NCBI GenBank assembly: GCA_023511455.1
Contig: JAIMBJ010000011.1
Coordinates: forward strand, 13,637-77,636
Source of the DNA: Bacillota bacterium
Lineage (GTDB): Bacteria; Armatimonadota; HRBIN16
DNA length: 64,000 bases
Direction of reading: 5' to 3'
Shown here: piece by piece, positions 10,451-29,412 of the stretch
How the letters are laid out: each line of letters begins with the position of its first letter
Numbering within the stretch: position 1 is the first letter of the stretch
Position numbers and translations under genes: made by a program
Notes under the pieces: generated by a model
The model's database searches: none
Seen by the model: only the letters and a program-made list of their open reading frames with translations
What the model was told of the DNA's origin: nothing

Positions 10451-10840
10451 CTACCTTCTTGCCGGATGTGCCCCGCCAATCTGTACGGTTTGTGCGTAAA
10501 GCACACTGTCTTCTACGATGCCGGATACGGTGACCGCAGCGCCAACCCACAGTTCATCTGGAGAAGCAGCACGCTTACCGCGCGTCCACTGCGTATGCTC
10601 GTCCCAGACGACGGTGACGGTCAGCCCTTTGAGGTCGCAATTACGCACGCGGCGCACCTGCATCACGAAGCTGTCCTCCCCGATGCTTACCACCTTGCCT
10701 TCCACAATCGCCACGTTCTGCGCTGCGGCGCTCCATGACCTCGCGTGTTGCGGGGCAATGGGTGCCATCAGGGAAGGCAGAATGGATAGCCCCAACAACA
10801 GTACCGTACTGAGAATCAACATCCTGACGGTTTTCATCAC
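10451..10840 (-). CDS. Small secreted hypothetical protein
   Basis: N-terminal signal peptide MMKTVRMLILSTVLLLGLSILPSLMA, and its own downstream terminator. Confidence 0.55.
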   Translation of the reverse strand: MMKTVRMLILSTVLLLGLSILPSLMAPIAPQHARSWSAAAQNVAIVEGKVVSIGEDSFVMQVRRVRNCDLKGLTVTVVWDEHTQWTRGKRAASPDELWVGAAVTVSGIVEDSVLYAQTVQIGGAHPARR

Positions 10841-10948
10841 CGAACCTCCTCCATAAAGTGTATCTATAAGATAAGAAGATGCAAAGGAAGGGAAGATTCC
10901 CGGTATTTCAGGTGGTATTGTGGAAAATGGATGAGAACTGGCGTGAGA

Positions 10949-11938: not shown

Positions 11939-12426
11939 CAGGGCACCTCCTGAGGCTGTGAGCGGCTGGCAAGCATCACGCCTAGAGCGGCTTTGTCACT
12001 CAGCGGGTCGCCCCAGGACATCATCTGGTGGGTGTGCATCAACTGCTCGGCGTTGTCGTGCTGGGGAGCATCTCCTTCTGGCGAGCGAGGCAGGCTGAAA
12101 TAGGCTATCGCTACCAGCACCGCTGCTGCCGCTGCGCCACCTAAAGCCAAGCGAGGCACGGAAAACCATCGTTGCCAGAAGGGTATCTGTACCCTCTGGG
12201 GTTCCGCCTCTATACGCGCCCGGATGCTGTTCCAGAGATGCGCGGGCGGTTCCTCGGGTTCCACTGTTCTCAACACCCTGTCCACCCGTTCCAGCGCGCG
12301 CAGCTCCGCAGCACAGGAGGGGCATTGCGCCAGGTGTGCCTCAACCATTTGTTTCTCTCGCTCAGCCAGCAGCCCCACCGAGTAATCGGCTAATTTCGCT
12401 TTGATTTTTGTGCACTCCATGTTCAT
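11938..12426 (-). CDS. Anti-sigma factor with a zf-HC2 (ZAS) zinc finger and a single TM helix
   Basis: H-x3-C-x2-C motif (EAHLAQCPSCAAEL). A TM segment (LALGGAAAAAVLVAIAYF) is present. It lies immediately downstream of the ECF sigma gene. Confidence 0.75.
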   Translation of the reverse strand: MNMECTKIKAKLADYSVGLLAEREKQMVEAHLAQCPSCAAELRALERVDRVLRTVEPEEPPAHLWNSIRARIEAEPQRVQIPFWQRWFSVPRLALGGAAAAAVLVAIAYFSLPRSPEGDAPQHDNAEQLMHTHQMMSWGDPLSDKAALGVMLASRSQPQEVP

Positions 12427-12430
12427 CGCC

Positions 12431-13012
12431 TCATTTCGCGTCCACCAGATAGCTCAGCTTGCGCCGTAGCGTCTCGCGCGCCCGCGCCAGTCGCGACAGC
12501 ACCGTGTTTTTCGGCACCCCCAGTACCTGTGCCACTTCAGAGATGCCCATATCTTCCAGATAGTACATGGTCACCACCTCGCGGTGATTCTCGGGCAGAG
12601 AGCGCACTGCCTGCCATACCGCCTCCTGCATCGCCTCGGAGAGGGCAATCTGCTCCGGGTTCTCCGACCAGTCAGCCGCCTCCACTGGCTCTGTCTCTCC
12701 ATCTTCATCATCGGTGAAGGTGCTCTCCAGAGAAACGGTAGTGAGCTGTTTGCGCTTTCTCCAGTCCAGCACCGCGTTGCGTGCGATGCGATGTAACCAC
12801 ACCCAGAAGGCTTCGTTCGCCTGCAGTTGCTTCAGCCCACTCCACGCGCGCAGGTAGACCTCCTGCATCAGGTCTTCGGCGTCCTCTGAGGTGGGTACCA
12901 TCTGGCGGATATACTGATAGATGCGCCGGTGGGTGTGCTGATACAGATCGCCAAAGGCGTCTACGTCACCCGCTCTGGCGCGTTCCACCAGTTGATTGTC
13001 CCGTTCGAACAT
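12431..13012 (-). CDS. ECF-type RNA polymerase sigma-70 family factor
   Basis: Region 2 (DLMQEVYLRAWSGLKQL) and region 4 HTH (MGISEVAQVLGVPKNTVLSRLARARETLRRKL). The start was set at MFERDNQLVERARAGD. The ORF-track N-terminal extension is junk. Confidence 0.85.
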   Translation of the reverse strand: MFERDNQLVERARAGDVDAFGDLYQHTHRRIYQYIRQMVPTSEDAEDLMQEVYLRAWSGLKQLQANEAFWVWLHRIARNAVLDWRKRKQLTTVSLESTFTDDEDGETEPVEAADWSENPEQIALSEAMQEAVWQAVRSLPENHREVVTMYYLEDMGISEVAQVLGVPKNTVLSRLARARETLRRKLSYLVDAK

Positions 13013-13146
13013 GGTACCCACCCATATCCCTTCTAAACGGATAAGACGAACCAGAAGGGGAGGAGATTCCCTCTCTTTCCCCCACCATGACGCCGAACGG
13101 CTCGGCGGAAACCTCACCACCAGTGAATATCGCCGAGAGAGTGCAG

Positions 13147-15612
13147 CTACTCGCCCACGCGCCACTCCAGAATGCCAGCAGAGTATCCTGCCCTGAGCTT
13201 GACCTCTAACCGCAACGCCGCAGCCACTACCGGCTCGAACTCGACGCGGTTGAAAGCGTCCTTACGTGTTTCTTCGCTGTGAGTGACCTTCACCGGATAC
13301 CACTGCTGACCGTCGGACCACAGCACGCGCCACGACTCCGGAAGACGGCACTGTCCGCCAGCCGGCTCGTCGTCAAACCAGTAGACCTCACACCACGAGA
13401 TGCGGCGCGGGCGGGCAAACACGTATTGCACCCACTCGGTGGTGCCCGTGTGGTCCCACCAGGTGAAGCGCGGGATGCTCCAATCTGCAGACGAAGAGGG
13501 CAAAAGCCCATCGTTCAGCGCGAGCACCGTGTCGGCGTGCCAGCAGTGCGAAGCCTCTGCAATGACCGTATTCGTCTCCTGCCAGACGTTGGCGTTCGGG
13601 CCCTCGCCTATCTGTGGGAAAGCCGACACACGCAATCGGGCACATCCCATGGGAATCAGGATGATGTCCTCCACAGGCTCGTCCGAGCGCACCGGTGATT
13701 CCTGTACCTCTCCAATCAGCCCGTTCGCCTCCAGACGCCACTGCGGGATGCGTTTGCCTTTCGCCCTGAGCAGGACGGGCGCGTTCTCTGGAGTGAAGGG
13801 TTGTGCGGCAACCTTGTCTGGCTTCCTGACGACCTCAAACGACATCTGCGGGTTGCTCAAGTCCACTATCAGCCCGTAGTTCCACGCGGTGGTGGGGAAA
13901 ACTTCGTACGCGGGGAAGCGGTCGGTGCCCCCGTAGCGTTCCCATCGTTCGCCTATCCGCAGGGAGAAAGCCAGCGGGCCGAGGTAAACGGAGACAGTGT
14001 TACGGTTTTTGTCCCATACTTTAACAAATAGTGGCATAGTCAGGGTTAGCCTGACACGGTCACCGTCGCGCCATTCGCGCTGCAGGAGTATCCAGCCTTT
14101 CGCCGGTGAGGGTAGTCGCTGTGACTGTCCGTTCACCTCCACGCGTGGCGTTTCGCACCAGCCGGGCACGCGCAGGGTGAGTGGGAACCGCACCGATTTT
14201 GGCGTGCGGATGGTCAACTGCACCTCCTCTCCGAAGGGGTAATCGGTCTCTTCCACGATTTCCACCGTCGTGCCATCGGCAACTTTCGCCTCCACCCGGC
14301 AGGGCGCGTAAAAGACAGCTGCCAGCCCGTTGCCCGGCGTTGCCATCCACAGGTGCTCCGCGAAGTAGGGCCATCCGAACGCCACGTTATGCTGGCAACA
14401 GCGGTAGTCGTAGGGGTTATAGGAAAGCATGTCGCCGCCGTTTTGCAGCAGTGGCGCTTTGCTCTGACGGTCGAGTTGCACCATGTTGGGCGCGGTGAGG
14501 TAGTGCAGCCCCTTCAGGTCGGGCGTCATGGCAGCGGGCAGTGAGTTGAAGGCGACTTCCTCGCACCGGTCTGCCCACTTGCCGTCACCGGTGATGCGCG
14601 TGAGCAGCTGGTGGCTGTACATCATCTCCACCATCGAACAGGTCTCCGCCGCCTGCCGGGGACCGGTGAAGCCAGGGCGAGCGTTCTCATCCGCACCGAA
14701 CATCCCGCCTGGCACCTGCCCATAGATGCCCATGACCGTATCGTACACGCGCTCGGTAGCCCGCAGGTAGCGAATATCACCGGTTTGCTGGTAGTACTGG
14801 GCGGGTTCGCGGAAGCCCTGGCAGATATTCACCCCGTGCCAGGTGGGGATGTCACCCACCCAATCCGCGGTGCGTTCATGGGTAACCCGCGCGGCGTCCA
14901 GCATCCACTTCTCCCCCGTGAGGTTGTACAGCCAGTGGATGGTGTCCAGGTTGTCGCCGCCGCGCACTTTCTGCCAGCTGCCGGGCAGGAACTTCTCCAG
15001 CGGCACGGTCATCTGCCAGCGGAAGTATTTGAGCATGAAGGGGATGACGCGCGGGTCGCCGGTGGCTTCGTAATGGGTGCGCAGCGCGTACAGCGCAATC
15101 ATGTTCGGCCAGAGGTCCATCGCGGCGCGGTTGCTTTCTGGACCGAAGTAGCCGTCTTCGCGCTGGCTGGCGAGAATGGCGTCGATCCACCGTCTTGCTT
15201 CAGTGATTATGCGCTGGTCTCCCAGCACGTAGCCCAGTGAGGTAAACCCCTTGAGCCAGTAGGGGAGCTCCTCCCAGCCATTTTCACCTTGCCCCTGCGG
15301 GTTTGCCCACGCACTGCCCTCAAACCGGCACCATGAGCTGATTTCGGTCAAATGCCCGGTGAAGCCGTCCGCCATCAGTTCCAGTTGATGACGGAGCCAG
15401 CCCTCGGGTCGGATAGAGCCGGCAGGCAGTTTGATGAGCGGGCTGGGCAGCAGCGGCGCCCGGTTGCCCGCGTAATGACGGTTCGCCGGCGAGGTTGGAA
15501 GAGTGATGGTTATCTTCATCGTTGCATTCCTCTCCGCAGAGTATTGTTGTGCATCAACTACCGTTATCACCCATAGCGTAGCGACCAGAAGGGACGCTTG
15601 TTTCATTCCCAC
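13147..15612 (-). CDS. Secreted six-hairpin glycoside hydrolase, DUF1680/GH127-like (candidate beta-L-arabinofuranosidase) with a C-terminal discoidin-like domain
   Basis: Signal peptide. An (alpha/alpha)6-type region is present. An E-T-C motif (AETCSMVEMMY) and a Cys-Cys pair (YDYRCCQHNVAFGWPYF) are reminiscent of the GH127 Zn/catalytic site. The 150-aa C-terminal beta-sandwich is F5/8-like. Confidence 0.5.
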   Translation of the reverse strand: MGMKQASLLVATLWVITVVDAQQYSAERNATMKITITLPTSPANRHYAGNRAPLLPSPLIKLPAGSIRPEGWLRHQLELMADGFTGHLTEISSWCRFEGSAWANPQGQGENGWEELPYWLKGFTSLGYVLGDQRIITEARRWIDAILASQREDGYFGPESNRAAMDLWPNMIALYALRTHYEATGDPRVIPFMLKYFRWQMTVPLEKFLPGSWQKVRGGDNLDTIHWLYNLTGEKWMLDAARVTHERTADWVGDIPTWHGVNICQGFREPAQYYQQTGDIRYLRATERVYDTVMGIYGQVPGGMFGADENARPGFTGPRQAAETCSMVEMMYSHQLLTRITGDGKWADRCEEVAFNSLPAAMTPDLKGLHYLTAPNMVQLDRQSKAPLLQNGGDMLSYNPYDYRCCQHNVAFGWPYFAEHLWMATPGNGLAAVFYAPCRVEAKVADGTTVEIVEETDYPFGEEVQLTIRTPKSVRFPLTLRVPGWCETPRVEVNGQSQRLPSPAKGWILLQREWRDGDRVRLTLTMPLFVKVWDKNRNTVSVYLGPLAFSLRIGERWERYGGTDRFPAYEVFPTTAWNYGLIVDLSNPQMSFEVVRKPDKVAAQPFTPENAPVLLRAKGKRIPQWRLEANGLIGEVQESPVRSDEPVEDIILIPMGCARLRVSAFPQIGEGPNANVWQETNTVIAEASHCWHADTVLALNDGLLPSSSADWSIPRFTWWDHTGTTEWVQYVFARPRRISWCEVYWFDDEPAGGQCRLPESWRVLWSDGQQWYPVKVTHSEETRKDAFNRVEFEPVVAAALRLEVKLRAGYSAGILEWRVGE

Positions 15613-15697: not shown

Positions 15698-16489
15698 TCA
15701 CACCAGGAATCTGCTGCGCAGCTCGTAATGCTCCACACAGTTGAAGTAAAACTCTGCCACCAGCTCCACTGAGCGAAAGTAGAACTTGCTTGATATCGTG
15801 GCAAACGGCTCATGGCTGATGCGTTGTTCGAAAAGATGGCGTCGGTTCTCATGTGCCACCAGCACCAAACGAGTTTCGAATTCCTTGAGGGCGAACATCT
15901 TGAGCATCGAGCGTTCGAAATCTGTGGTGGTTTCTACCTCAAAAACATACTTTGGAAAGGGATGCGCAGTGCGCGAAAACCAGATGACATCACACCGCCC
16001 CACGCGCTCCTTCACATCTTGATAGGTGAAATCCGGCACCTGCCGCAGCACACACAGGTCACCAAGACGTTTACCATCGAACAGCCTGTTGACGTCAGGA
16101 GTGTAGGTGTTGTAATCCAGGTAGTTACCGATTTCAATCAACATACCCTCGATGGTAGCGTGCAGGTCAGGTCTGTTCCCGATATAGTCCCGATAAGAAC
16201 GCTTATCGAGAGCGTACTGATAGGCAGAAGACGGCTCTGCTTTTTGGGCTTCTGGCAGCGCATATACTCCCAAACCCACTTTGACGAATCTGCCAGCCTT
16301 TGCTTCCCGATATAGAACACCTCGTAATGTTTTACGCCAGTCGCCGGAGGGCATCCGCTCTCGATGTAGCGGTGCGCGTTCATACAGATGCGTTAGGGAA
16401 GCTATCCCGTTATTCTCCCGCATGATTTGCTCGATGAGGTCACCCCATCTCATATCACGTATCCCAAAACCGAGTGAGTCCCTATCCAA
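15698..16489 (-). CDS. Hypothetical protein with an N-terminal wHTH-like region and a C-terminal PD-(D/E)xK-like nuclease motif; lone gene of a low-GC insertion
   Basis: About 50% GC against a 63-66% background. AT-rich flanks. Putative motifs IEGMLIEIG ... CDVIWF ... YVFEVETTTD. It abuts a truncated gene remnant. No homolog is recognised with confidence. Confidence 0.6.
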   Translation of the reverse strand: MDRDSLGFGIRDMRWGDLIEQIMRENNGIASLTHLYERAPLHRERMPSGDWRKTLRGVLYREAKAGRFVKVGLGVYALPEAQKAEPSSAYQYALDKRSYRDYIGNRPDLHATIEGMLIEIGNYLDYNTYTPDVNRLFDGKRLGDLCVLRQVPDFTYQDVKERVGRCDVIWFSRTAHPFPKYVFEVETTTDFERSMLKMFALKEFETRLVLVAHENRRHLFEQRISHEPFATISSKFYFRSVELVAEFYFNCVEHYELRSRFLV

Positions 16490-16537: not shown

Positions 16538-16791
16538 TTAACCCTCCTGCCGCTTACAGAAGGGGCGGACGCCCTGCAAAGGAGCCTGTTGATAAAGGCA
16601 TTCCGTCATCAGGTTCTGCCGTTGTCCGGTGAAGTCCCCACACACCTCCAGTCGCGTGCCTCTTCCTGCGCGCGAAGGATATGACGTCCGGCAATAACCA
16701 GATGCGCGTTCGTGTGTTCCAGCAGCAGCGCCGCAATCCACCTGCCGGTGCTGCCATAGCCTCCCAAAACGCCTATCTTCGGCGCAGCCAT
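16538..16791 (-). pseudogene. 5' remnant of a saccharopine-dehydrogenase-like NAD(P)-binding oxidoreductase gene, truncated at the low-GC insertion
   Basis: MAAPKIGVLGGYGSTGRWIAALLLEHTNAHLVIAGR is a Rossmann N-terminus with its own RBS (ggag). All three frames terminate within about 250 nt, just before the low-GC gene. Confidence 0.4.
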
Positions 16792-19700
16792 TGTACGCCG
16801 CTCAGGACTCCCGAAAGAGATTGCACCTGCACGGTCAGGTTCGCCCAGTCCCCCTTGCCGAAGTCGCCCCTGCCGATGAGCAGCGCAACCCAGCCGCCGT
16901 CCAGCGCGATGGTTTCGCCCGGTTTGACTTCCTGCTTGACATCCTGCCAAAGGTCGGGATGCTGTCCGCCGCCGGGGTCTTTCCAGAAGGTGCACTTCCA
17001 CTTTTCCGACTCGAAGGGCATTGAACCGTAGAACAGCCCTGCCTGCGTATGGCTCCATGCACCCGCGTTCAGGTAATAATTGGGCACTCCGGCAGGCTGG
17101 TCATCCCTGCCGTCGCCGTGCAGCTGGCTCTGGGCATAGTGGTACACTGCCTCCACGCGCAGTGGAATTGCGCTCAGGTTCTGCAGGCGACGCATCCGCA
17201 CCAGCAGCATCGGCTGCAGCAGGTCTTCACGCACCTCCATTTCCCATTCCACGCGGTAGCTTTGCGGACGTGCCTGCTGTGCCGCAAAAACCCCCGTCTG
17301 CTGGTTCACTTCGGTAATCGCGGAGCCATCGCGGTGGGTCAGCCAGCCGCGCAGGTAGTGTCCAAACGGTGTCCCCACCAGTTGCACCCCTTCGTGGCGA
17401 TTGGGGGGTACCCATTGCATCTGCGACAGGCTCTGCTGCACCAGCACGGTGTAGCTGCCTATCCGCTGCCCCTGCCAGTAGATGGTGCGTATCGGTGCCC
17501 GCTCGTTTCCAAATAGCAGGTCAAAGTTTGGGGATTTCAGCTGGAAATCGGCAGCGATGGTGTAGTCCTGCGGACGGCGTTCCTGGCGTGCCGGCACAAA
17601 CAGCACCAGCCCACTCCACGTCCTGCCCGGTGGCACGTTCTGCACATACAGCCATAGCCGTTGCCGGAAGAGCGGCTCGATGTGGAACCGCACCGCCTTG
17701 CCGTCCATGCTCACACACCGCCACTCGCCAGATTGTTGTTGCGCCATTGGATGTTCGGGCAGGTCGATCCCTATCCAGCCAGAGAACGGCTGTCGATTCG
17801 TATTCTGCAAATCCACCTGCCACGCCAGCGTAGCTTGTGAGGGAATGTTCCACCGCCGACGCGGGAATGCTGGCTTGCTAACTGGCGGTGGTTGCGGGCT
17901 TCGCGTGCGGTATCGCACGGATTCGGTGTGCATCGCGTATACCTTTGCCTGCAATTCTGTTGCAGTTTGTACGAGAATCTTATACGGTTCGCCCTGCTCG
18001 TTCACCAGCCCGTAGTTGCTGTCTTCGGGGAAGGTGCTGCTGATGCCCAGTGCAGGCTCATCCACCCACATGAAGAAGTTAGACCCCACCATAAACGGCA
18101 GGTGAAACACGGCAGACTGGAAAATGCGGAAGCACTCCGCCCGCTGTTGCTGCGTATCCACCCGCATACCCGCGCCGTGTTTGCAGGGAAGGCCACTGTC
18201 CAGCGCGGGGAAGCTCCATTCCGTAATCATCAGGGGGCGTCTGGACTGCCGATAGTATTCGCGCAGCCGTTCTTCCCAGTCCAGCACACACCCTGCACGC
18301 AGGTCGATGCGGGGATAGGTGTTGATGCTCACCACGTCGCAGTACTTCCCTGCGATGTCCAGAATGGGTGGCGCCTCCCCTGCGAAGCGGCAGCCCAGAA
18401 CCAGATGGTTGGGGTCGTGCTTGCGGATGGCTTCCGCGCAGGTTCGGAAATAGAGCTCCGCCGCCAGACGGGTGAAGGCGATGCCGTCCTCCTCTGCCGC
18501 CTTTGTGCGGATGGTGGGTGGTTGCTCGCCGTGCGCGATGTCGTCGAAATCGCGGATGCGGGCATCCCATGCGCGGTTGAATGCCTGCACATCGCCCCGA
18601 TAGCGGTCGCGCAGCAGCTGCGCCAGAGCCACGCGAGAGTCGTGCCCCCTTGCACGTTTCAACGCCTCGATGGCGATCCCCCACGGTTTGTAATCCTTGC
18701 CGAACCACTCCAGCTCGTTGTCCAGAAAATAGCCGATAAGCCAGGGGTCGTCTCGCAGGGGAGCGCAACGCTGGTAGGCTATCCAGTCACACCATTGCTG
18801 CCATCGCGGAGAGAATACGTTGGGAAACCCCGTCCAGTGAACCTGTTTCACCAAATCGTCAATAGCGGCAAAGCCCTGTCCCATGCCCAGAATGTTATCG
18901 ATGTATGCCAGCCCCTGATGGCGGAGGTAGGACGAATGGTTCGCGGCAAGGATATTGAAGTTCCAGCTTTTCAGACGCTGCAGGGTTTCCTGTGCCCACG
19001 CCTGCTCGGAACCGTGTCGCCTCTTCATATTCTCATGGTAAGGGGCGTAACCCAGCTTCTCGCACCAGTGCACAAAGTAGCTGGTGTGGTCGGTACCGAG
19101 TGCGAAGAAGAGCCGCCCCTCGGGGTCAATGAACCACCAGACGCCGTCTATCTCCTCCACGCGGAAAAAGCCGGTAGCCTGGCGTACCTTCCTGCCCACG
19201 TGCGCCACCTTGTAGGCTGGTCGGGGCTTCTGTTCGGGACGTGGTGGCTCGGCAGGTACGGTGTTGCGCGTCTCTATTTGCGAGAAGGTGGCGTCGAAAG
19301 CGTTGCAGGTCAACCCCAGATAGCCCGCACGCACCGCCTTCGGATTATCCAGTGCCCATTCGTATGCCCAGCAGAGCGTATTTTGCGCGTCGTAGATTTC
19401 TCCGCGGATAGTTTGCGCGTTCCAAATCAGGCGCAGGCAGTACGGCTTTCCGTACTCCCAGCTCCAGTCGGGAAGGCTGAAGCTCTGCTTAACGGTGAGA
19501 CGGGTAGCGGGTTCATTGCCCGCCAGCCAGGTGCCACCGTACAGCTCGTGCAATTCGGCGGTGTGGCGATACTGCAGGTTTTCGGGAGCTTCCACCAGAT
19601 TCAGCCGCCAGTGGTGGCGGTCATCCTGCCACAGGGTGATGCCCACCGTTTTCCAGTAGGTCGGGTTAGTGACAGCGCGATGCACCACCACCGTCGCGTT

Positions 19701-19826
19701 CAGTTCGCCCGCCTGCGAGAAGCTGTCCTTCAGCAACAGCGCACCCTGGGGCATCTCCGCGCGCACCGTGCCGTCATCCTGCACCGTCCATCCAAACGGT
19801 ATTATCTGCCACCGTGTTTGAGGCAT
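16773..19826 (-). CDS. Large (1017-aa) glycoside hydrolase with a clan GH-A TIM-barrel core and extra N- and C-terminal domains
   Basis: Candidate acid/base NE motif (FLDNELEWFG) and nucleophile motif (LMITEWSF). No signal peptide. The GH family is not assignable by eye. Confidence 0.7.
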   Translation of the reverse strand: MPQTRWQIIPFGWTVQDDGTVRAEMPQGALLLKDSFSQAGELNATVVVHRAVTNPTYWKTVGITLWQDDRHHWRLNLVEAPENLQYRHTAELHELYGGTWLAGNEPATRLTVKQSFSLPDWSWEYGKPYCLRLIWNAQTIRGEIYDAQNTLCWAYEWALDNPKAVRAGYLGLTCNAFDATFSQIETRNTVPAEPPRPEQKPRPAYKVAHVGRKVRQATGFFRVEEIDGVWWFIDPEGRLFFALGTDHTSYFVHWCEKLGYAPYHENMKRRHGSEQAWAQETLQRLKSWNFNILAANHSSYLRHQGLAYIDNILGMGQGFAAIDDLVKQVHWTGFPNVFSPRWQQWCDWIAYQRCAPLRDDPWLIGYFLDNELEWFGKDYKPWGIAIEALKRARGHDSRVALAQLLRDRYRGDVQAFNRAWDARIRDFDDIAHGEQPPTIRTKAAEEDGIAFTRLAAELYFRTCAEAIRKHDPNHLVLGCRFAGEAPPILDIAGKYCDVVSINTYPRIDLRAGCVLDWEERLREYYRQSRRPLMITEWSFPALDSGLPCKHGAGMRVDTQQQRAECFRIFQSAVFHLPFMVGSNFFMWVDEPALGISSTFPEDSNYGLVNEQGEPYKILVQTATELQAKVYAMHTESVRYRTRSPQPPPVSKPAFPRRRWNIPSQATLAWQVDLQNTNRQPFSGWIGIDLPEHPMAQQQSGEWRCVSMDGKAVRFHIEPLFRQRLWLYVQNVPPGRTWSGLVLFVPARQERRPQDYTIAADFQLKSPNFDLLFGNERAPIRTIYWQGQRIGSYTVLVQQSLSQMQWVPPNRHEGVQLVGTPFGHYLRGWLTHRDGSAITEVNQQTGVFAAQQARPQSYRVEWEMEVREDLLQPMLLVRMRRLQNLSAIPLRVEAVYHYAQSQLHGDGRDDQPAGVPNYYLNAGAWSHTQAGLFYGSMPFESEKWKCTFWKDPGGGQHPDLWQDVKQEVKPGETIALDGGWVALLIGRGDFGKGDWANLTVQVQSLSGVLSGVQWLRRR

Positions 19827-19954: not shown

Positions 19955-20156
19955 CAGCCAACGCACCAAGCACCTTTTCTGTGAGGGTGGCACATGCTCC
20001 TGCTAAGAACCTCTGCACAGAGGTTGCGATTCGCACTCCGACAATTTTTATTCTGCGCGTTGTCAGAGATGAAACATTGCAAGCGGATCAGTATCTAAAT
20101 AGGTGGGACGAGAAAAAGTGGGCACTCCATTTCACAGCAAGCCGGGGGATGGGACG

Positions 20157-21038
20157 ATGAAGGTCTGCGTAGAGTGGTGGACAGCGCTGTCGGCGTATGT
20201 GGATAATGCCCTGCCGCCAGATGAACGCGAGCAGGTGGAAGCGCATCTGGAGCAGTGCGCGGGATGTCAGGAGGCGGTGGTGCATCTGCAGTCACTGCGA
20301 CGGGTAGTAAGCCTTTTGCCTCCACAAGAGCCTCCGCCGATGCTGAAGGCACGCATTCTGTCGGCGACGGTGGACCAACCTACATGGACAGAACGACTGG
20401 CAATGGGCTGGCGACGGATGGCATGGCGTGCCGCGCTGACGACCGCCGTGGTATTGATAGCGATGTTTGTGTGGCAGTTTATCCCCCGACAGGTGCCTCA
20501 GATGGTGAGCACCCTCGCATTGCGTAACCCGCAGAGCCAGCCATCCGCCATGCCTCAGCGGTTCAGTGGTTCTCTATCTGCCCAAAAGCAAGGCGGTGTG
20601 GCTTCGTTGAATATGGGGACTCGTGCGGTGCGGCGTTCGGTAGCACAGCAACCTGCAGCTCCTGCGAAGACACCGTCGGTGAAAAACGAGGCAAAATGGT
20701 CTGCAGTGACTCGTGCGCGAATCACCCCTGCTCCTGCTCCGACCGATGCGTTGCAGGGCGAGCCGGTCATGGAAGAGGACGTGCCCCACATCGACGTCAA
20801 TAGTCCGCCTGCGGGTACGGACAATGTGATTGCCGAACAACCGGAAGAGATGGAGGACAGCAAAACCGTCGCGACGCGCTTCACTCTTCCGGCAGAAGTC
20901 GTGCCCTCTCCAACGCAGGGACTGGAGTCTTTACGGGAGCAAATCCGCATTCGGGGTGCGGAACAACTGAAAGGGCAGCTGGAGCGTAAGATCGAGCGCA
21001 AACAGGTCGAATTGGACGTTATCAAAGTTCGGTTCTGA
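20157..21038 (+). CDS. Orphan anti-sigma-factor-like membrane protein (zf-HC2 N-terminus, one TM helix, long low-complexity periplasmic tail)
   Basis: HLEQCAGCQEA zinc motif. A TM segment (AALTTAVVLIAMFVWQFI) is present. The Ala/Pro/Gln-rich tail ends in an amphipathic helix. The start is at the Met preceded by the RBS gggggatggg. No sigma gene is adjacent. The stop overlaps the next start (TGATG). Confidence 0.7.
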   Translation: MKVCVEWWTALSAYVDNALPPDEREQVEAHLEQCAGCQEAVVHLQSLRRVVSLLPPQEPPPMLKARILSATVDQPTWTERLAMGWRRMAWRAALTTAVVLIAMFVWQFIPRQVPQMVSTLALRNPQSQPSAMPQRFSGSLSAQKQGGVASLNMGTRAVRRSVAQQPAAPAKTPSVKNEAKWSAVTRARITPAPAPTDALQGEPVMEEDVPHIDVNSPPAGTDNVIAEQPEEMEDSKTVATRFTLPAEVVPSPTQGLESLREQIRIRGAEQLKGQLERKIERKQVELDVIKVRF

Positions 21039-24000
21039 TGAGGTTATCGGTTCGTTACATATTGCTGGCGGCTGCCGCCTTCGCAGTCATGGCGACCGCG
21101 TGGGGACAGGATAACACACCTCCCACCATACCCCTCGCGGAAGGGCGTATTACTGCCTCCAAATCGCCGTCGGCTGGTTCTCAGGTGGGACAGGCAAACG
21201 CCGACCTGCTGCGCGGCAATGGCACGCGAGCCGGCTACCTGCTGCGCTACGGCAATATCGTGCCCGAAAGCGAGCGTGTGATGGTAGACGCTCGTACCCT
21301 GCAGCGCAATCAGGACTATACCATTGACTATACGACAGGCACTATCTTCTTCACCGAGCCGGTGCGCACCTCGCAGACGATACGGGTGTATTACCGCTAC
21401 GTGCCCGGCTCCAGTGAACAGCGTGGATTGCTGCAGGCTCCCTCGATGAGGCTGCAGTTCGGACAGAGCCAGCTGAACATGATGTACAGCTCCAGCGCGT
21501 TCCTGCGCCGCGAGGACGGTACCACCCTGCAGACCGATACCTACGGTATGCAGACCCGCCTGAATCTGAATAGCAACAGTGCTGTGGAAGGCTTGCTGTT
21601 CTTCTCCTCGCAGCGGGCAATACAGGCGGTGGCAGACCCCACCCTGCAACCGGGTGCGCCTTCACGTCCGAATACGCAAGCCGCCGCCGGCTCCGACCGG
21701 CTCATTCTGCAGAACCTGAACTGGAGCGTGGGCGGGCTGCAGCTGCGAGGCATGTATCAGGACGTAGGGCAGCGCTTCGCGGGTTTCGCCGCTCTGCGCG
21801 AGCAAAAAGCTGCCCCCGACCAGCTGCTCGGCTGGCTGGAGAAAGAGCGGGGGATGCGCCGCATGAGCTACGGGCTGGGCTACGTGGCTGGCGGGATGAA
21901 CCTGCAGACCGATGTCAGCCGCATCACCGATGGCAAGGGGGATATCCGACAGACGCATTACAGCGTGCAGACCAAACAGATGGAGCTGCGCTTCAGCGAG
22001 ACCAAGATCGATCCCCAATTCCAGCGCTTCAATGACCTGCGTGAAGACCAGCGAGCACAGTGGGCGAAGGAGCGCGGACTAACGCGCGACACCCTCTCCG
22101 CCCTGTTTCGCCTGAGCGGCAACTCACAGCTGGGTTTTGAGCGTCAGCGCATCCTCGATTCGGGTAGTAGCATCGAGCTGACAAACTACGCGCTGCAAAC
22201 CGCCGGACTGAAGCTCACTTACAGCACACAGGACATCGATAAAGAGTTCACCCGCTTCAACGACCTTGCCGAGGGACAGCGGGCACAGTGGGCGAAGGAG
22301 CGAGGCTGGGTGCGCTCTTTCTTGAGGGCAGAGCTGCCTCCGTTCAAAGGCACGAACCTGCCCAACCTGTTTATGCAGCAAACCATCCGTACCGAGACGG
22401 GTAACCTGAACTTGCGTCAGATATCGCTGAACACCCAGACGGTGCAGGTGGACTATACCCGACTCGGCACCGACCCCAGTTTCGCGGTGGCAAACCTCAC
22501 GCCGGAAGAGATAAACCAGATGGCACTGCTGGCGCGTCAGCAGGTGGAACCCGGCGCGAACGCCGTCACCGACAAAGACAGGCAGCAGGTTCTGCGCGAG
22601 GCGGGGTTGCAGCGAGAGACCCTGCGCATGAACATGACTGCAGCCGCCAACACACAGGTCAGCGTCATGAAAACAACGGTAGAAGACGCCAGTGGTGACG
22701 TGAAGCGCATGCAGGTCGCTTACACCAGCCCCAAGTTCGAGGTAGCTTATCAGCAGCAGAGCATCAGCGAAGGTTTCAACCGACTGGGAGACCTGACCGA
22801 CCCCGAGCGCAAGCTGTACGCTGCGGAGACGGGTATCGCGCGGAGGCTCATCAGCACGCGCCTCGCACTGGACAAGAACACCGCCATCAGCGCACTGTTC
22901 GGCAATATCCGCGATTCGCAGGGTTCGATTATCAAACAGTCTTACGCCCTGCGCACGCCGCGCCTGTCGTTGTTTGCCAATATCAAGCAGGTAGACCCCA
23001 CCTTCTCGCGCATTGGCGACCTGACCGAGACCGACCGCAACGACCTGAGCGGTTTGCTGGGCTTCAAGTACTTCGACATGGCGGCGCAATGGCAGGTCAG
23101 TAAAACGCTGTGGTTTGAGGGCTTCTGGATCGACTCGCACAACGCCCAGGTGCAACAGATGCACCGACGCCAGCGCCTGTACTTCCAGTATCAACCCGCG
23201 GCGACCACACGCATTACACACCTGAACGACCGTACCAACCGCGATGGCGCAACGGAAGTACTGCATCGCCAGTGGCGTGAGACCACCGCCATCGACCACG
23301 CGCTCGGAAAAGGGCTGAAGTTCTCCGCGTATCGCGATCGGGTGGAGGAAGAGGGCGTACTGCTCGAACCCACCACCTCGTTGACCAACTTCTGGCGCGT
23401 GGAATCCGACAAGAGCCGACCGGTATGGTTTGTGGTGGAGCAGAAACACCTGCGCCGCACCGACGGCTACTACGATACCGCCGATACCGTGCAGGTGCAA
23501 ACGCCCGTCTCCAGGAGCGCTGTCATGCAGTTCACCGAGCAGAGGTTCGGGCGCAGCGATCGCCCTTCCGAGTTGATACGCACGGTATCCTCCCAGTGGC
23601 TGCTGCGCAAAGACCTGACCTTTGCCATGAGCCTGTCGCGCCGCACCACCAGCGCCGATACCGGCAGCCTGCTGAAGAGCTTTGCGCTGTCGGGTCCGGT
23701 GCTGAACTTTGCCAACGTCACAGGCAAGTACGACGAACTGCGCGTGGACCGCGTGAACACCAAAGCGCAGAGCGAGATATCCGTCTCGTCGCTGAAGCCG
23801 TTCAACGCACTGGGCTTGACCAACATCCAGTTCACCGGTGCATACGCTGCGCTGGCAGACAGGGCAACCTGGCAAAAAGAGACGCGCAGTGGGCGCATCA
23901 CCGCGAATCTGGGCAAGCACAGCCTGCTGGCGGAATACACCTCCGCCTTTATCCCGCAGGCAGCCGACCGTTTGGTGATGCGCACGTATCAGTTCACCGT

Positions 24001-24529
24001 CGCCCCCATGAGCAACTTCAAAGGGGAAATATACTACCGCATGATTGAACAGCCGAATATGGGGACATGGCACGTGCGCCGCTACGCGTTAGACTGGCAG
24101 CTGAATCCGAACACCTCGATCAGCCATCAGTTCCTGACCCTGCCTGAGCAGGGCAATAACCGCGTGCAGCCGATAGGGCTGGACGTGTGGAAAATGAGCA
24201 CGCGCCTGAACAGTCGCCAGGTGCTGAACGGGGAGTACCGAATCGAAACCGACTACGCCAAACGCCAGATTATCCGCCGTGCGCTGTTGAGCGTGGCTGG
24301 CAGGCTCTCTGCCCTCTCCAGTGGTGAGGTGGGTTACAGCCTGGACTCGGTGAACTACCAGGGCAACAAGGGAACAGCGCATTCCTTCCACCTGCGCTAC
24401 GGCTGGCAACTGGACGATGACCATTTCCTCAACTTGAGCCTGCGCCTGACCAACTACCAGCACCGCGTGCCGCACGGTCTTTCGCGCAATGAGCTGGCGG
24501 GCGCGCTCGAGTACAAGACGCCGTTCTGA
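21038..24529 (+). CDS. Large outer-membrane beta-barrel-type protein (1163 aa) with five internal repeats of about 70 aa
   Basis: Signal peptide MRLSVRYILLAAAAFAVMATAWG. The repeat motif is [beta-strand]-x-(I/V/T)-D-P-x-F-x-R-(F/I/L)-(N/G)-D-L-(R/A/T)-E-x-x-R, found at KIDPQFQRFNDLREDQR, DIDKEFTRFNDLAEGQR, GTDPSFAVANLTPEE, SISEGFNRLGDLTDPER and QVDPTFSRIGDLTETDR. The C-terminal Phe (YKTPF) is typical of OM barrels. The gene is translationally coupled to the upstream ZAS-like gene. Confidence 0.8.
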   Translation: MRLSVRYILLAAAAFAVMATAWGQDNTPPTIPLAEGRITASKSPSAGSQVGQANADLLRGNGTRAGYLLRYGNIVPESERVMVDARTLQRNQDYTIDYTTGTIFFTEPVRTSQTIRVYYRYVPGSSEQRGLLQAPSMRLQFGQSQLNMMYSSSAFLRREDGTTLQTDTYGMQTRLNLNSNSAVEGLLFFSSQRAIQAVADPTLQPGAPSRPNTQAAAGSDRLILQNLNWSVGGLQLRGMYQDVGQRFAGFAALREQKAAPDQLLGWLEKERGMRRMSYGLGYVAGGMNLQTDVSRITDGKGDIRQTHYSVQTKQMELRFSETKIDPQFQRFNDLREDQRAQWAKERGLTRDTLSALFRLSGNSQLGFERQRILDSGSSIELTNYALQTAGLKLTYSTQDIDKEFTRFNDLAEGQRAQWAKERGWVRSFLRAELPPFKGTNLPNLFMQQTIRTETGNLNLRQISLNTQTVQVDYTRLGTDPSFAVANLTPEEINQMALLARQQVEPGANAVTDKDRQQVLREAGLQRETLRMNMTAAANTQVSVMKTTVEDASGDVKRMQVAYTSPKFEVAYQQQSISEGFNRLGDLTDPERKLYAAETGIARRLISTRLALDKNTAISALFGNIRDSQGSIIKQSYALRTPRLSLFANIKQVDPTFSRIGDLTETDRNDLSGLLGFKYFDMAAQWQVSKTLWFEGFWIDSHNAQVQQMHRRQRLYFQYQPAATTRITHLNDRTNRDGATEVLHRQWRETTAIDHALGKGLKFSAYRDRVEEEGVLLEPTTSLTNFWRVESDKSRPVWFVVEQKHLRRTDGYYDTADTVQVQTPVSRSAVMQFTEQRFGRSDRPSELIRTVSSQWLLRKDLTFAMSLSRRTTSADTGSLLKSFALSGPVLNFANVTGKYDELRVDRVNTKAQSEISVSSLKPFNALGLTNIQFTGAYAALADRATWQKETRSGRITANLGKHSLLAEYTSAFIPQAADRLVMRTYQFTVAPMSNFKGEIYYRMIEQPNMGTWHVRRYALDWQLNPNTSISHQFLTLPEQGNNRVQPIGLDVWKMSTRLNSRQVLNGEYRIETDYAKRQIIRRALLSVAGRLSALSSGEVGYSLDSVNYQGNKGTAHSFHLRYGWQLDDDHFLNLSLRLTNYQHRVPHGLSRNELAGALEYKTPF

Positions 24530-27418: not shown

Positions 27419-27588
27419 CCGGCGCATCCCATGCAAACACCCGCGCCAAAGGTGCTGTCCTTCCTGGTGGCGAATCTGTCGCTCAGCGGAGCAATGCAGG
27501 ATAACGCGGGGTCTTCAAGGTTCCTGGTCCGCTCAAAATGACCAGCTACCTTACGTGCTTATCTCAAAAGGCTATTTTTCCGGTTTAC

Positions 27589-29412
27589 ATGCGGCGCATA
27601 AGGCTTGTCCTGTTCTGCCTGGGTTTGACAGGCTGGTTGTTTTGTGTGCTGCCAGCGGGAGCACAGCGGGTCGCGGTGGTTTGCCTGCGGTCGACTGAAG
27701 TGCCCTTGCTGATTCGTCACACTGCGACAATGCCAGGCGCGCAGGCGTTGTTGCTCAGTCGCGTGGCTTCCTCGCCGTGGCGACCATCTTCCCTCCTGTC
27801 TCGTGAGCAATGGGAGCGCAGCGCATACCTCACCCTCAATGCGGGCACGCGCGCTCGGGTAACCGAAAGCCTCTCACCAAACGGAATGGAACGGCTGCGG
27901 CAGCTGGAGCAGATAAACTGTTGCTGGGGATATCCCGTGGTCGTGGGACTGCTTCCGGAGGAACTGAAGGCAAGGGGAGTACGGTTGCACTACCTGACTA
28001 CCCGTCGCGACTCACCGATGCTGCTGGCAGGTGCGCCCTTTCCCGAGGTGGATGCCCGCGTCGTTATGGATTCAGCAACCCTGTTTGCCGTGGCGCAATT
28101 CGTCTTGCGCGGGCACTCGCGGTTGATGCTATGGATAGATGCGGACACGGTGGAGCCTGCTCAGCTGGAGCCGCTGGTGCGGCGTTTGCAAACCGTCCTC
28201 ACCCAACCCACCGACGTGCTCTATCTGCTGATGCCGATTCCATCCCCTTCCGAGGCGGCGAGAGGCTCCCAGCTGGGGTGGGTGCTGCGACTGGGCAGAG
28301 ACGGTGAGGGCTTGCTGGTCTCAGGTTCGTCTCGTCTGCCGGGCTACATCACCCTGCCTGACCTTACCGCAACGTGGCTGTCGCACTTTGGCTGTACAAA
28401 GATGCCTGCCGGGGCGGTGGGGTTGCCCGCTCGCGTGTCGCCCGACGACAGCCCTGCTCAGACGATGCAACGCCTGTATGACTCGCTGGTGCGGCAGGCG
28501 TGGTGGAACCATACGATAGGCGCGTTGCCGACGGTGCAGCTGGTCGCGCTGGTAGTGGCATGGTTGTGGTGGTGGCGGCGGCGAGTGGTGCGTTCGTTGT
28601 GGTTGTTTCCCTGCGTAGTGCCTGTGCTGGGGATATCGCTGGTACCGGTGCTCATCTGCCTGCCTCTGGGGGGCATCTCGTGGCAGGCGCGAGTGGCAAT
28701 CTGGCTTATCAGCGCGGGAGGGTTGCTCATTGCGCTGTCGCGCTTGCCGTTGAGTCAGAGCCTGCGTGGTCTGGGCACGGTTCTCCTGGTGTTTGCAGGG
28801 GTAGACCTGCTGCACGGCGGGAATCTGCTGCGCTGGAGCGGCTACGGCTATGTGCTGCAGGAAGGGGCGCGTTTCTACGGTGTGGGCAATGAGATGGCGG
28901 GTAGCCTGTTCGGGGCGCAGAGCGGGTTTCTGCTCGCGGAGAGCGGGACCTGGAGCCTGTTGCGCTGGACGCTGACCGCCGTGGCAATGGGCGCGCCGTT
29001 CTGGGGTGCGAATACGGGAGCAATGTTGTCGGCATTTGGTGTGGCGATGCTCCACGCCCTGCGCCGATGGCGCTGGTGGGGAGCAGGGATGCTATTGTGC
29101 GCACTGGCGGTTGTGGTGCTCTGGGAGTTCCTCTCGCCCAATCCGTCGCATCTGGGCAGGTTCCTGCAAGACCCGTCGCTGTGGTTACCCACGATAGCAC
29201 GCAAAGCGCAGATGAATCTGAGCCTCCTGCTGAGCAGTGCATGGACGCCGCTCCTGTTGTTTGGATTGTGTGGTTTGAGGGGCGCGCCCGCGCCGGTTTG
29301 GGCAGGGGCGATTTTGCTGCTGGTGTTGAACGACTCCGGCGTGGTGGCTGCGGCGTCGATGCTGACGTGGTGGTGGGCATGGCGTGTGGCGCAGCGGGAA
29401 GCGGAGTCATAG
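27589..29412 (+). CDS. Membrane protein: periplasmic alkaline-phosphatase-superfamily-like domain fused to a C-terminal polytopic domain (paralog 1)
   Basis: Signal peptide MRRIRLVLFCLGLTGWLFCVLPAGAQ. The C-terminal multi-TM region carries an FYGVGNEMAG motif shared with the paralog at 30152-31954. Confidence 0.7.
   Translation: MRRIRLVLFCLGLTGWLFCVLPAGAQRVAVVCLRSTEVPLLIRHTATMPGAQALLLSRVASSPWRPSSLLSREQWERSAYLTLNAGTRARVTESLSPNGMERLRQLEQINCCWGYPVVVGLLPEELKARGVRLHYLTTRRDSPMLLAGAPFPEVDARVVMDSATLFAVAQFVLRGHSRLMLWIDADTVEPAQLEPLVRRLQTVLTQPTDVLYLLMPIPSPSEAARGSQLGWVLRLGRDGEGLLVSGSSRLPGYITLPDLTATWLSHFGCTKMPAGAVGLPARVSPDDSPAQTMQRLYDSLVRQAWWNHTIGALPTVQLVALVVAWLWWWRRRVVRSLWLFPCVVPVLGISLVPVLICLPLGGISWQARVAIWLISAGGLLIALSRLPLSQSLRGLGTVLLVFAGVDLLHGGNLLRWSGYGYVLQEGARFYGVGNEMAGSLFGAQSGFLLAESGTWSLLRWTLTAVAMGAPFWGANTGAMLSAFGVAMLHALRRWRWWGAGMLLCALAVVVLWEFLSPNPSHLGRFLQDPSLWLPTIARKAQMNLSLLLSSAWTPLLLFGLCGLRGAPAPVWAGAILLLVLNDSGVVAAASMLTWWWAWRVAQREAES

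Follow-up and report, generated by a model that had tools for sequence, protein, structure and literature searches.

A 293-amino-acid anti-sigma-like membrane protein (ORF1) and a 1163-amino-acid beta-barrel-like outer-membrane protein (ORF2), encoded by two overlapping genes in the 64,000-nucleotide stretch of Armatimonadota DNA analysed here (the window), make up an envelope module that is conserved and has not been described; their most likely role, with a mechanism that we infer below, is sensing and feedback across the envelope. ORF1 (20157..21038, + strand) is a single-pass protein of the ZAS type according to Pfam and PDB profiles, and ORF2 (21038..24529, +) is a secreted, giant barrel-like protein of an Armatimonadota-specific family. 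The two genes meet in a TGATG stop/start overlap (21036..21040, +), in which the final A of the ORF1 stop codon is also the first base of the ORF2 ATG (position 21038), an arrangement that points to translational coupling. Searches of the literature on giant barrels of 48 to 58 strands, on zf-HC2 domains together with the outer membrane, and on Armatimonadetes outer-membrane proteins returned no description of such a module, in line with the view of an earlier note on this DNA that the two genes fit no described system.

Of the 41 loci that could be tested, 35 have a ZAS gene directly upstream of the barrel gene, even where barrel identity is as low as 24–28%; the related loci were retrieved using a narrow ORF2 alignment that biases retrieval toward barrels carrying the N-terminal motif GNGTRAGY. 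The pairing spans Chthonomonadia-type and HR16-like lineages and is thus kept in related genomes, where its absence had been named in the earlier note as grounds for abandoning the idea. All 12 members of the window's clade (11 HR16-like relatives and the window) share the 1-nt overlap. Armatimonadota genomes are operon-poor, with functionally related genes scattered (PMC4959169). The pair is also carried by a cultivated species, Chthonomonas calidirosea (locus L039 is a C. calidirosea MAG). Loci L002, L004, L006, L042, and L033 contain the barrel gene without a ZAS gene, so the core function of the barrel needs no ORF1. The correlation between GNGTRAGY and the presence of a partner is imperfect: L041 has a partner and a degenerate motif, while L033 has the motif and no partner.

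ORF1 begins at the ATG at 20157, 7 nt downstream of a Shine-Dalgarno-like GGGGGA read from the sequence (20144..20149, +), and stops at the TGA at 21036–21038; an in-frame alternative start (GTG at 20103) is without support from homologues. The cytoplasmic anti-sigma domain (residues 1–75; 20157..20381, +) comprises a zf-HC2 region and a fourth helix, EPPPMLKARILSATV. Residues 4–38 match Pfam zf-HC2 (PF13490; E = 1.4e-12, 47.9 bits versus a cut-off of 22.2), and the H-x3-C-x2-C zinc motif with an upstream Cys is present as C4...H30-x3-C34-x2-C37. Profiles of PDB structures identified RslA (2e-5), RsiW (4e-5), and also RskA, with E-values ranging from 2e-5 to 1e-3, while NCBIfam anti-sigma matches, RsrA included, were below the family cut-offs. 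These matches place ORF1 among the class-I/ZAS anti-sigma domain proteins, and binding to a sigma factor is predicted for it.

The domain is followed by a single predicted transmembrane helix, WRAALTTAVVLIAMFVWQFI (residues ~90–109; 20424..20483, +), in agreement with a hydropathy peak at residues 87–120 across ORF1 homologues, and the Arg-rich N-terminal flank of this helix suggests an N-in topology. The periplasmic linker (residues 110–236; 20484..20864, +) is of low complexity and rich in Ala, Pro, Ser, and Gln (13% A, 12% P, 10% S, and 9% Q in residues 111–236), shows little conservation, and varies in length across the family. Up to this point the domain layout agrees with that proposed earlier, namely a zf-HC2 domain at the N-terminus, a single membrane-spanning helix, and an extended Ala/Pro/Gln-rich tail. 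The tail does not end in an amphipathic helix, as had been thought: beyond the helix (~residues 256–280) comes a beta-like strand that is conserved and has a terminal Phe. Both belong to a strand-helix-strand module conserved across clades (residues 237–293; 20865..21035, +), in which a short strand (TRFTLPAE) precedes the amphipathic helix (LESLREQIR...) and the terminal strand (QVELDVIKVRF-COOH). In all ZAS partners examined the terminal strand (…QIRVDVIRGSF) ends in Phe, with the degenerate L001 as the sole exception. Bacillus subtilis RsiW and Mycobacterium tuberculosis RslA and RskA share the homologous N-terminal domain and the single-pass topology; however, they adjoin their cognate sigma genes and have no outer-membrane partner, whereas ORF1 has a long disordered tail and the conserved Phe-ended strand.

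The description of ORF2 as a secreted 1163-residue protein with a C-terminal Phe, starting over the ORF1 stop, was confirmed by the TGATG overlap, by a signal peptide identified in the sequence (MRLSVRYILLAAAAFAVMATAWG/Q, residues 1–23; 21038..21106, +), and by a C-terminus reading ...LEYKTPF. The protein contains no Cys. Its last strand, LAGALEYKTPF (24494..24526, +), is beta-signal-like with a near-invariant terminal Phe (F1163, conserved in at least 90% of sequences). A small N-terminal beta domain (residues 52–121; 21191..21400, +), delineated by AlphaFold2 strands (52–59, 80–83, 94–97, 102–105, and 114–121) and invariant columns, carries the motifs GNGTRAGY, which lies in the invariant columns, and VPxSExVxVDG..DYxxDxxxGxxxF..IRVxYRY. 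Further downstream are six repeats of ~76 aa (21737..23077, +), each of four strands plus a helical loop, with the motif D..F.RFNDL.E..R.Q.AKERG..R. at positions 247, 328, 404, 482, 580, and 656 and invariant F/R/L/E/G/R columns; the loop helices fall at residues 250–269, 339–344, 415–420, 489–518, 588–594, and 664–670 of the AlphaFold2 model.

The family comprises 1798 clusters at 50% identity, and its named members are all from Armatimonadota and all annotated as 'hypothetical protein'. Comparison of ORF2 with Pfam, NCBIfam, and PDB sequence profiles gave no family match (0 hits in the PDB profile search), and the assignment to a well-known family that the earlier note had considered fatal to its proposal did not materialise. 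Plug, TonB_dep_Rec, Omp85, LptD, and OstA were without a match in Pfam and NCBIfam, as was SLH in Pfam, consistent with the suggestion that ORF2 is not a TonB-dependent receptor. Scores for phage tail-type beta domains at residues 62–128 were below threshold in both collections and were treated as noise.

The AlphaFold2 model of ORF2 (pLDDT 84, pTM 0.47; residues 1–50 of low pLDDT) contains ~54–55 predicted antiparallel beta strands between residues 137 and 1160 according to DSSP (21446..24526, +), with very short turns in the C-terminal half. The strands are amphipathic, with a hydrophobic fraction of 0.63 on one face and 0.33 on the other, compared with 0.85 for the outward face of OmpA. Foldseek neighbours were generic outer-membrane barrels (TonB-dependent receptors, SprA, and LptD), as well as the beta-belt of apoB100, all with TM-scores of ≤0.3 (0.18–0.30 when normalised to LptD). 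Taken with the signal peptide and the C-terminal aromatic residue, the amphipathic antiparallel strands and the barrel-like predicted fold give ORF2 the general features of an outer-membrane barrel. ORF2 is an outer-membrane-barrel-like protein outside the described families and may close into a single barrel. A rather improbable alternative is that AlphaFold has been over-interpreted and that the protein forms a two-lobed or open amphipathic beta-sheet, serving as a surface or periplasmic lipid-binding protein; the low pTM, the apoB100 match among uniformly low TM-scores, and the less hydrophobic outward faces relative to OmpA would fit such a sheet.

The best structural neighbours, SprA (36 strands), SlpA/OmpM (30 strands), and LptD (26 strands), are likewise large secreted proteins with a beta-signal-like C-terminus, but they show no sequence similarity to ORF2, which has a far larger predicted number of strands, six internal four-strand-plus-helix repeats, and no SLH/coiled-coil, OstA/LptD domain, or T9SS context. 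OmpM/SlpA proteins connect the outer membrane to peptidoglycan through an N-terminal SLH domain and a coiled coil preceding the barrel (PMC9388160). A connector of this kind was rejected for ORF2, whose N-terminus is a small beta domain with no SLH match and no long helix predicted. We also rejected LptD, as the OstA/LptD domains (N-terminal beta-jellyroll plus 26-strand barrel) are absent, leaving a possible functional analogy, and Omp85 proteins (BamA/TamA), as ORF2 does not have the combination of POTRA domains and a 16-strand Omp85 barrel.

Physical contact between the two proteins was modelled in AlphaFold2 by fusing the C-terminal 57 residues of ORF1 to mature ORF2. In the resulting model, based on a shallow unpaired block-diagonal alignment and with the ORF1 C-terminus not free, the tail was an undocked, low-confidence free helix (pLDDT 25–45). 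Within these limits, the outcome counts against the contact assumed in the sensing model favoured below, and also against an alternative, in our view unlikely, that ORF1 mainly supports the structure or assembly of the barrel, as a TonB/TolA-like tether or dedicated escort with a secondary or vestigial anti-sigma domain. ORF1 does have a TonB/TolA-like layout, with a membrane anchor joined by a Pro/Ala-rich spacer to a small element at the C-terminus, its last strand resembles that of the barrel itself (...VITVRF versus ...LEYKTRF), translational coupling implies stoichiometric synthesis, and the Cys ligands are missing from the partners in L019, L021, and L001. However, no part of ORF1 is better conserved than the anti-sigma domain, HxxxCxxC being kept in 31 of the 34 tabulated partners as well as in the window and L041, and several lineages assemble the barrel in the absence of ORF1. 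The tether proposal envisages the ORF1 strand pairing by beta-augmentation, or acting as a beta-signal-like strand at the barrel seam or at BAM.

A bolder version of the sensing model, which we consider about equally unlikely, takes ORF2 to be a ~54-strand single-chain barrel, far larger than the largest solved ones (SprA with 36 strands and SlpA with 30), and a phylum-wide core envelope machine, with ORF1 as a novel type of anti-sigma whose beta-signal-like, Phe-ended strand inserts into or docks on ORF2, or on BAM while ORF2 is being assembled. If this were true, the cell would read outer-membrane protein assembly through a tethered reporter strand, and not through free C-termini as in DegS/RseA.

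Upstream of the pair, an ECF-type promoter-like motif, TGAAAC-N16-TATCTAA (20070..20098, +), is located 58 nt from the ORF1 ATG. Using patterns that were defined post hoc, after inspection of the data, we found three matches to GAAWY-N18-TCTWA in the window versus 0.13 expected; of the 33 loci that carry a ZAS gene, 28 contained the unified motif TGnAAC-N16-yrTC, which has a background frequency of 0.0056 per 200 nt. With variable spacers, the ORF1-promoter motif is present in front of the ZAS gene in the window and in each of the 11 close relatives. The consensus of ECF promoters is of the AAC / −10 CGT type (PMC5758882). A second bipartite motif, CGACAA-N16-TGTC (20039..20064, +), has this single match in the window, is conserved upstream in the alignment of the HR16-like clade, and is possibly a second or ancestral ECF-type promoter. 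A scan for sigma-70 promoters and terminators gave nothing above chance.

The sigma factor that ORF1 would control is not encoded next to it. In the window no sigma gene lies within 7 kb of ORF1, in keeping with the earlier observation that none adjoins it and at variance with the adjacent cognate sigma of ZAS anti-sigmas; the nearest are at 12431–13012 (−) and 60269–60913 (−). The latter, SigH-like, was rejected as a partner, being placed between mutY and a methyltransferase gene without a related promoter motif. The former, a sigmaE-like ECF sigma identified by Pfam (12431..13012, −) 7 kb from ORF1, heads an operon with a ZAS anti-sigma (11938–12426, −) and an RseB-like gene (10949–11938, −), both also Pfam assignments. 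The anti-sigma domain of ORF1 is 35% identical to that of the sigmaE-linked anti-sigma. The operon has an autoregulatory-type promoter, GGGAATC-N16-CGTCTTA (13042..13069, −), of the same geometry as the ORF1 motif and conserved, with variable spacers, in eight of nine orthologous loci (L043–L051; the −10 of L049 is TCTTC). Among 30 related loci whose flanks were examined over 3 kb, sigma genes were found only in L031 and L033, where sigmaE-like operons lie immediately next to the ZAS-barrel pair or the barrel gene in divergent orientation. This sigma appears to be the best candidate in the window. Nevertheless, it has an anti-sigma and an RseB-like gene of its own and its promoter differs (GGAATC/CGTC versus TGAAAC/yATC for ORF1), so the cognate sigma may be elsewhere. 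The label 'orphan' that ORF1 had been given fits the lack of an adjacent sigma gene, but it needs qualification, since the ECF-type promoter of the pair is conserved and the sigmaE-like operon 7 kb away has a promoter resembling it.

The same promoters bear on whether the two proteins interact at all. Among the five lineages without ORF1, three have GAAACC-N15/16-CGTC in front of the barrel gene, and a shorter-spaced variant was seen by eye in a fourth. We count this in favour of the feedback model described below; an ECF-type promoter on the barrel gene even without ORF1 is also what would be expected from co-regulation without interaction, where ORF2 belongs to an ECF envelope-stress regulon and ORF1 provides negative feedback in response to another signal. 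Thiol or redox stress acting through the zinc site, or general envelope damage, could be such signals. The undocked tail in the AlphaFold2 fusion and a ZAS motif of the kind usual in redox-sensitive anti-sigmas, among them RsrA (the sub-cut-off NCBIfam match), are compatible with this explanation, but it leaves unaccounted for the phylum-wide conservation of the terminal strand and its Phe while the linker drifts, as well as the strict adjacency and 1-nt overlap in operon-poor genomes; we judge it to have a fairly low probability.

We favour the sensing and feedback reading, which starts from what is directly established (the domain identities, a pairing kept across genomes, a terminal strand whose sequence and Phe are conserved, and an ECF-type promoter that is conserved too) and adds three elements that we infer, namely contact between the proteins, release by proteolysis, and which sigma is involved. 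An ECF-sigma-type promoter would transcribe both genes, and TGATG would couple their translation. ORF1 would be the inner-membrane anti-sigma, its flexible linker spanning the periplasm and its strand-helix-strand end, terminating in Phe, being held by, or reporting on, the assembled barrel or the barrel's N-terminal periplasmic domain. Loss, misassembly, or perturbation of the barrel may free the Phe-ended tail and expose it to periplasmic proteolysis, and regulated cleavage of ORF1 would then release the ECF sigma, which would act on the ECF-type promoter of the pair itself. Against this reading, we identified no protease gene near the pair, and some partners have lost the Cys ligands. As a whole, this account of an Armatimonadota-specific two-gene module, transcribed from an ECF-type promoter, in which the ORF1 tail reports the state of the barrel to a sigma factor, is regarded as tentative, with nearly as much credence as doubt.

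In this form the module resembles two known systems. As in FecR/FecA, an inner-membrane anti-sigma with a periplasmic part is genetically paired with an outer-membrane barrel, and an ECF sigma output is expected. However, the pair has neither the FecR-type anti-sigma nor the TonB-dependent transducer of FecIRA-type systems: the ORF1 domain is ZAS (zf-HC2) without an adjacent sigma, and ORF2 lacks plug, TonB box, and STN domain and has ~54 predicted strands versus 22. RpoE-RseA-RseB/DegS also places an ECF sigma under a single-pass anti-sigma, aromatic (YxF) C-termini of outer-membrane proteins act as the signal there as a Phe-ended strand might here, the promoter here is of sigmaE/ECF-type geometry, and an RseB-like operon is near the pair (adjacent in some loci). 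In contrast to that system, the Phe-ended strand belongs to the anti-sigma itself, the ORF1 sequence is not RseA-like, the pair lies outside the operon with the RseB-like gene, and no gene for DegS or RseP was identified.

With ~1800 clusters and an extreme predicted architecture, the ORF2 family belongs to a poorly studied diderm phylum of Terrabacteria, in which central tasks of the outer membrane, LPS insertion and tethering among them, have been only partially assigned (PMC5007114, PMC9388160). The conserved promoter motif offers a handle for finding the cognate sigma, and the cultivated C. calidirosea makes the module testable. Coupling of an anti-sigma to an outer-membrane protein through a Phe-ended tail suggests a route from outer-membrane state to transcription, built from components non-homologous to FecR/FecA or RseA/DegS. 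The stress-type promoter together with the pairing suggests a previously undescribed way in which these bacteria report the state of their outer membrane to the gene-expression machinery.

ORF1 (20157–21038, plus strand), which encodes an anti-sigma-like single-pass membrane protein of 293 aa, starts 7 nt after a GGGGGA ribosome-binding site and ends in TGATG, where the A of its TGA stop doubles as the first base of the ATG of ORF2 (21038–24529, plus strand), the gene for a 1163-aa, cysteine-free protein with a signal peptide and the C-terminus ...YKTPF. A longer ORF1 start (GTG 20103) was disfavoured, as homologues start at MKVC. The assignment of ORF1 as an anti-sigma-domain protein is well supported: residues 4–38 match Pfam zf-HC2 (E = 1.4e−12), the zinc-motif residues are C4 and H30-x3-C34-x2-C37, and the profile of the ORF1 family matched the anti-sigma domains of known structure in RslA, RsiW, and RskA; anti-sigma matches in NCBIfam all fell under the cut-offs. 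With a hydrophobic helix at approximately residues 90–109 and a variable, Ala/Pro/Ser/Gln-rich tail, ORF1 has the structural features of the ZAS family and no sigma gene adjacent. This bears out the earlier note, which described a zf-HC2 anti-sigma N-domain, one transmembrane helix, and an Ala/Pro/Gln-rich tail, with no adjoining sigma gene and a stop overlapping the start of a secreted 1163-aa protein with a C-terminal Phe.

Across the ORF1 family, conservation covers the anti-sigma domain and transmembrane helix as well as a C-terminal module made up, in this order, of a short strand (TRFTLPAE or ARIVLTAS), an amphipathic helix (LADLRRSL), and a terminal strand, [KR]Q[IV]R[VL]D[VL]I[KR]G[SR]F, whose final Phe is invariant. 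The linker in between (130–200 residues) is unalignable across homologues. Judging by sequence, conserved ends joined by an unalignable linker point to a function residing in the two ends, with a spacer between them.

ORF2 gave only noise-level matches in Pfam and NCBIfam, and, with E values up to 10 allowed, its family profile matched nothing in the PDB, leaving it outside any well-known family in these searches. It also lacks what defines TonB-dependent receptors, LptD, Omp85, and OmpM/SlpA, in agreement with the earlier claim that the outer-membrane partner is not a TonB-dependent receptor. In an AlphaFold2 model built from an alignment of 17 sequences (pLDDT 83.7, pTM 0.47), residues 24–50 are disordered, residues 52–121 form a five-strand beta domain, and approximately 55 antiparallel strands are predicted from there to residue 1160. 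The strands are amphipathic (hydrophobic fraction 0.63 on one face vs 0.33 on the other). Residues 234–680 contain six ~76-aa repeats, each consisting of four strands and a helical loop with the motif D..F.RFNDL.E..R.Q.AKERG..R, whose F/R/L/E/G/R positions are invariant family-wide. A rival reading of this model is that ORF2 forms something other than one closed barrel.

An indexed search with ORF2 returned 31 clusters, and an exhaustive profile search returned 1798 at 50% identity (E ≤ 1e−3), including 283 at E ≤ 1e−30; the best 150 were mostly full length (about 1150–1200 aa). All 32 retrieved genome loci carrying the barrel gene (ORF2 or its homologue) are Armatimonadota, comprising HR16-like, Chthonomonadia, and Chthonomonadales lineages and one Chthonomonas calidirosea MAG, and the named cluster members are all Armatimonadota or Fimbriimonadales 'hypothetical protein'. 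There is good support for placing ORF2, as an outer-membrane-barrel-like protein, in a new family confined to one phylum; a literature search found no published description of the family or of the two-gene module. The window's own record bears a Firmicutes/Bacillota label, and the entry for the identical protein reads 'MAG: ... [Firmicutes bacterium]/Bacillota' (K6U75_08230). Because relatives and syntenic loci without exception belong to Armatimonadota, this label is doubtful, and probably reflects a binning or annotation error with a misclassified source bin. A KdsB-like CMP-KDO synthetase (CTP_transf_3; 56047–56781, minus strand) fits with an outer membrane that contains LPS in this organism.

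The pairing proved conserved across genomes, a point on which the earlier note had left its proposal to depend. An HMM of the ORF1 family, run over the six-frame ORFs from every locus, placed a homologue immediately upstream of the barrel gene and in the same orientation in 30 of 32 genome loci, the exceptions being L023, without upstream DNA, and L033, without a ZAS gene (an ORF1 homologue). Including further homologues in L003, L005, L007, and L041, the two genes occur together in 35 of 41 testable loci, the window among them, and the 1-nt overlap is retained throughout the window's clade (12/12 members). The L001 copy is degenerate, missing both the Cys and the terminal strand, and five loci (L002, L004, L006, L042, and L033) have no ZAS gene. 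A functional link between ORF1 and ORF2 is well supported. Since Armatimonadota genomes are known to be dispersed and operon-poor, with many ECF sigmas (PMC4959169), the absence of a sigma gene beside the pair is no surprise, and conservation of the pair stands out all the more.

Fimbriimonadales-type loci without a ZAS gene place members of this barrel family in another conserved neighbourhood: a convergent gene for a large protein (679–917 aa) of no Pfam family follows the barrel gene (L002 11543–14089, L004 9582–11621, L006 9507–12260; all minus strand), and a tiny reverse-strand gene (54–59 aa) precedes it in L004, L006, and L042. In the window, a 1017-aa protein without a Pfam domain (16773–19826, minus strand), which looks glycoside-hydrolase-like, is encoded directly upstream of the pair and divergently, with a syntenic counterpart of 1016 aa in L007. 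Its neighbour is a GH127 beta-L-arabinofuranosidase (13147–15612); between the two lies a 263-aa ORF of no family (15698–16489, minus strand), replaced in L007 by a saccharopine-dehydrogenase-like gene. This ORF and an HNH endonuclease ORF (5398–5940, plus strand) may be mobile insertions. Two paralogous polytopic membrane proteins of ~600 aa, without a Pfam family (27538–29412, plus strand, syntenic in L007; 30152–31954, minus strand), share 32% identity over 220 aa and a YG[VI]GNEM motif, and flank a NIF3 gene in a convergent/divergent arrangement.

Beyond the earlier note, conserved promoter motifs came to light: ECF-type control of both ORF1 and ORF2 is well supported. TGAAAC-N16-(C/T)ATCTAA precedes the pair in 12/12 loci of the window's clade, with freely varying spacers. 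In distant clades, TG[CT][AT]AC-N16-[CT]GT[CT] lies within 200 nt before the ZAS gene in 21/23 (loose form) or 18/23 (strict form, as written), against backgrounds of 0.0125 and 0.0009 per 200 nt, and a unified pattern occurs in 28/33 loci (background 0.0056 per 200 nt), figures that are indicative only, the patterns having been derived from these same sequences. Of the loci that lack ORF1, L002, L004, and L042 have GAAACC-N16-CGTC ahead of the barrel gene; L006 has a variant with spacing one shorter, read by eye and unmatched by the scan, and the scan upstream of the L033 barrel gene gave no match. As sequence patterns, these motifs agree with the signature described for ECF promoters, 'AAC' at −35 and 'CGT/CGTC' at −10 (PMC5758882).

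The window has three occurrences of GAAWY-N18-TCTWA (0.13 expected), each on the correct strand and 29–58 nt ahead of a start codon: upstream of ORF1 (20071–20098), of the ECF sigma gene of a sigmaE-like operon (13042–13069), and of a small secreted ORF that comes right after the RseB-like gene (10872–10899). The operon, on the minus strand throughout, encodes the sigma (12431–13012), a zf-HC2 (ZAS) anti-sigma (11938–12426), and a MucB/RseB-like protein (10949–11938). Upstream of the sigma gene the motif reads GGGAATC-N16-CGTCTTA, similar to that of ORF1 without being identical. It is kept, with variable spacers, in 8/9 orthologous metagenome loci (L043–L051), as would be expected of an autoregulated ECF promoter; in the ninth, L049, the −10 element has TCTTC. 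The operon adjoins the pair divergently in L031, and the barrel gene alone, also divergently, in L033; its anti-sigma and the ORF1 anti-sigma domain share 35% identity. Given these adjacencies and this identity, its sigma is the window's best candidate to transcribe the pair, and no more than a candidate; ORF1 perhaps binds it.

The small secreted ORF (129 aa, signal peptide; 10451–10899, minus strand) has its own copy of the ECF-type motif (GGGAATCTTCC...TCTTCTTA) 31 nt ahead of its start; L044 and L049 carry the motif too, at the corresponding place some 2.1 kb downstream from the sigma gene. A stand-alone SigH-like sigma (60269–60913, minus strand; Sigma70_r2 and r4_2, RPFAELCVTRQIITAVKMATRQKH motif) has no adjacent anti-sigma and is flanked by a MutY-like gene (59153–60229) and a gene for a 626-aa methyltransferase-domain protein.

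For a contact test, the last 57 ORF1 residues were fused to mature ORF2 under a block-diagonal alignment. The barrel was reproduced at pLDDT 81.7 and the ORF1 segment modelled at 25–45, as a free helix plus coil, which lends docking no support; the design, judged by pLDDT, is a weak one, as the fusion blocks the ORF1 C-terminus and the alignment is unpaired and shallow. One rival account has the two genes co-regulated without contact between their products; another gives ORF1 a role as a tether or in assembly. On the likeliest reading, ORF1 and ORF2 would act as a trans-envelope sensing and feedback pair, in which the Phe-ended ORF1 tail would report on the barrel and, once exposed, would cause an ECF sigma to be released by proteolysis. 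In RseA/DegS logic, the signal is the C-terminal aromatic residues of outer-membrane proteins; the mechanism proposed here would lie conceptually between this and FecR/FecA signalling. It is rather unlikely that the system is categorically new, with a tethered beta-signal-like strand monitoring a single-chain barrel of ~54 strands. The module would represent anti-sigma to outer-membrane-protein signalling made of parts non-homologous to the known ones.
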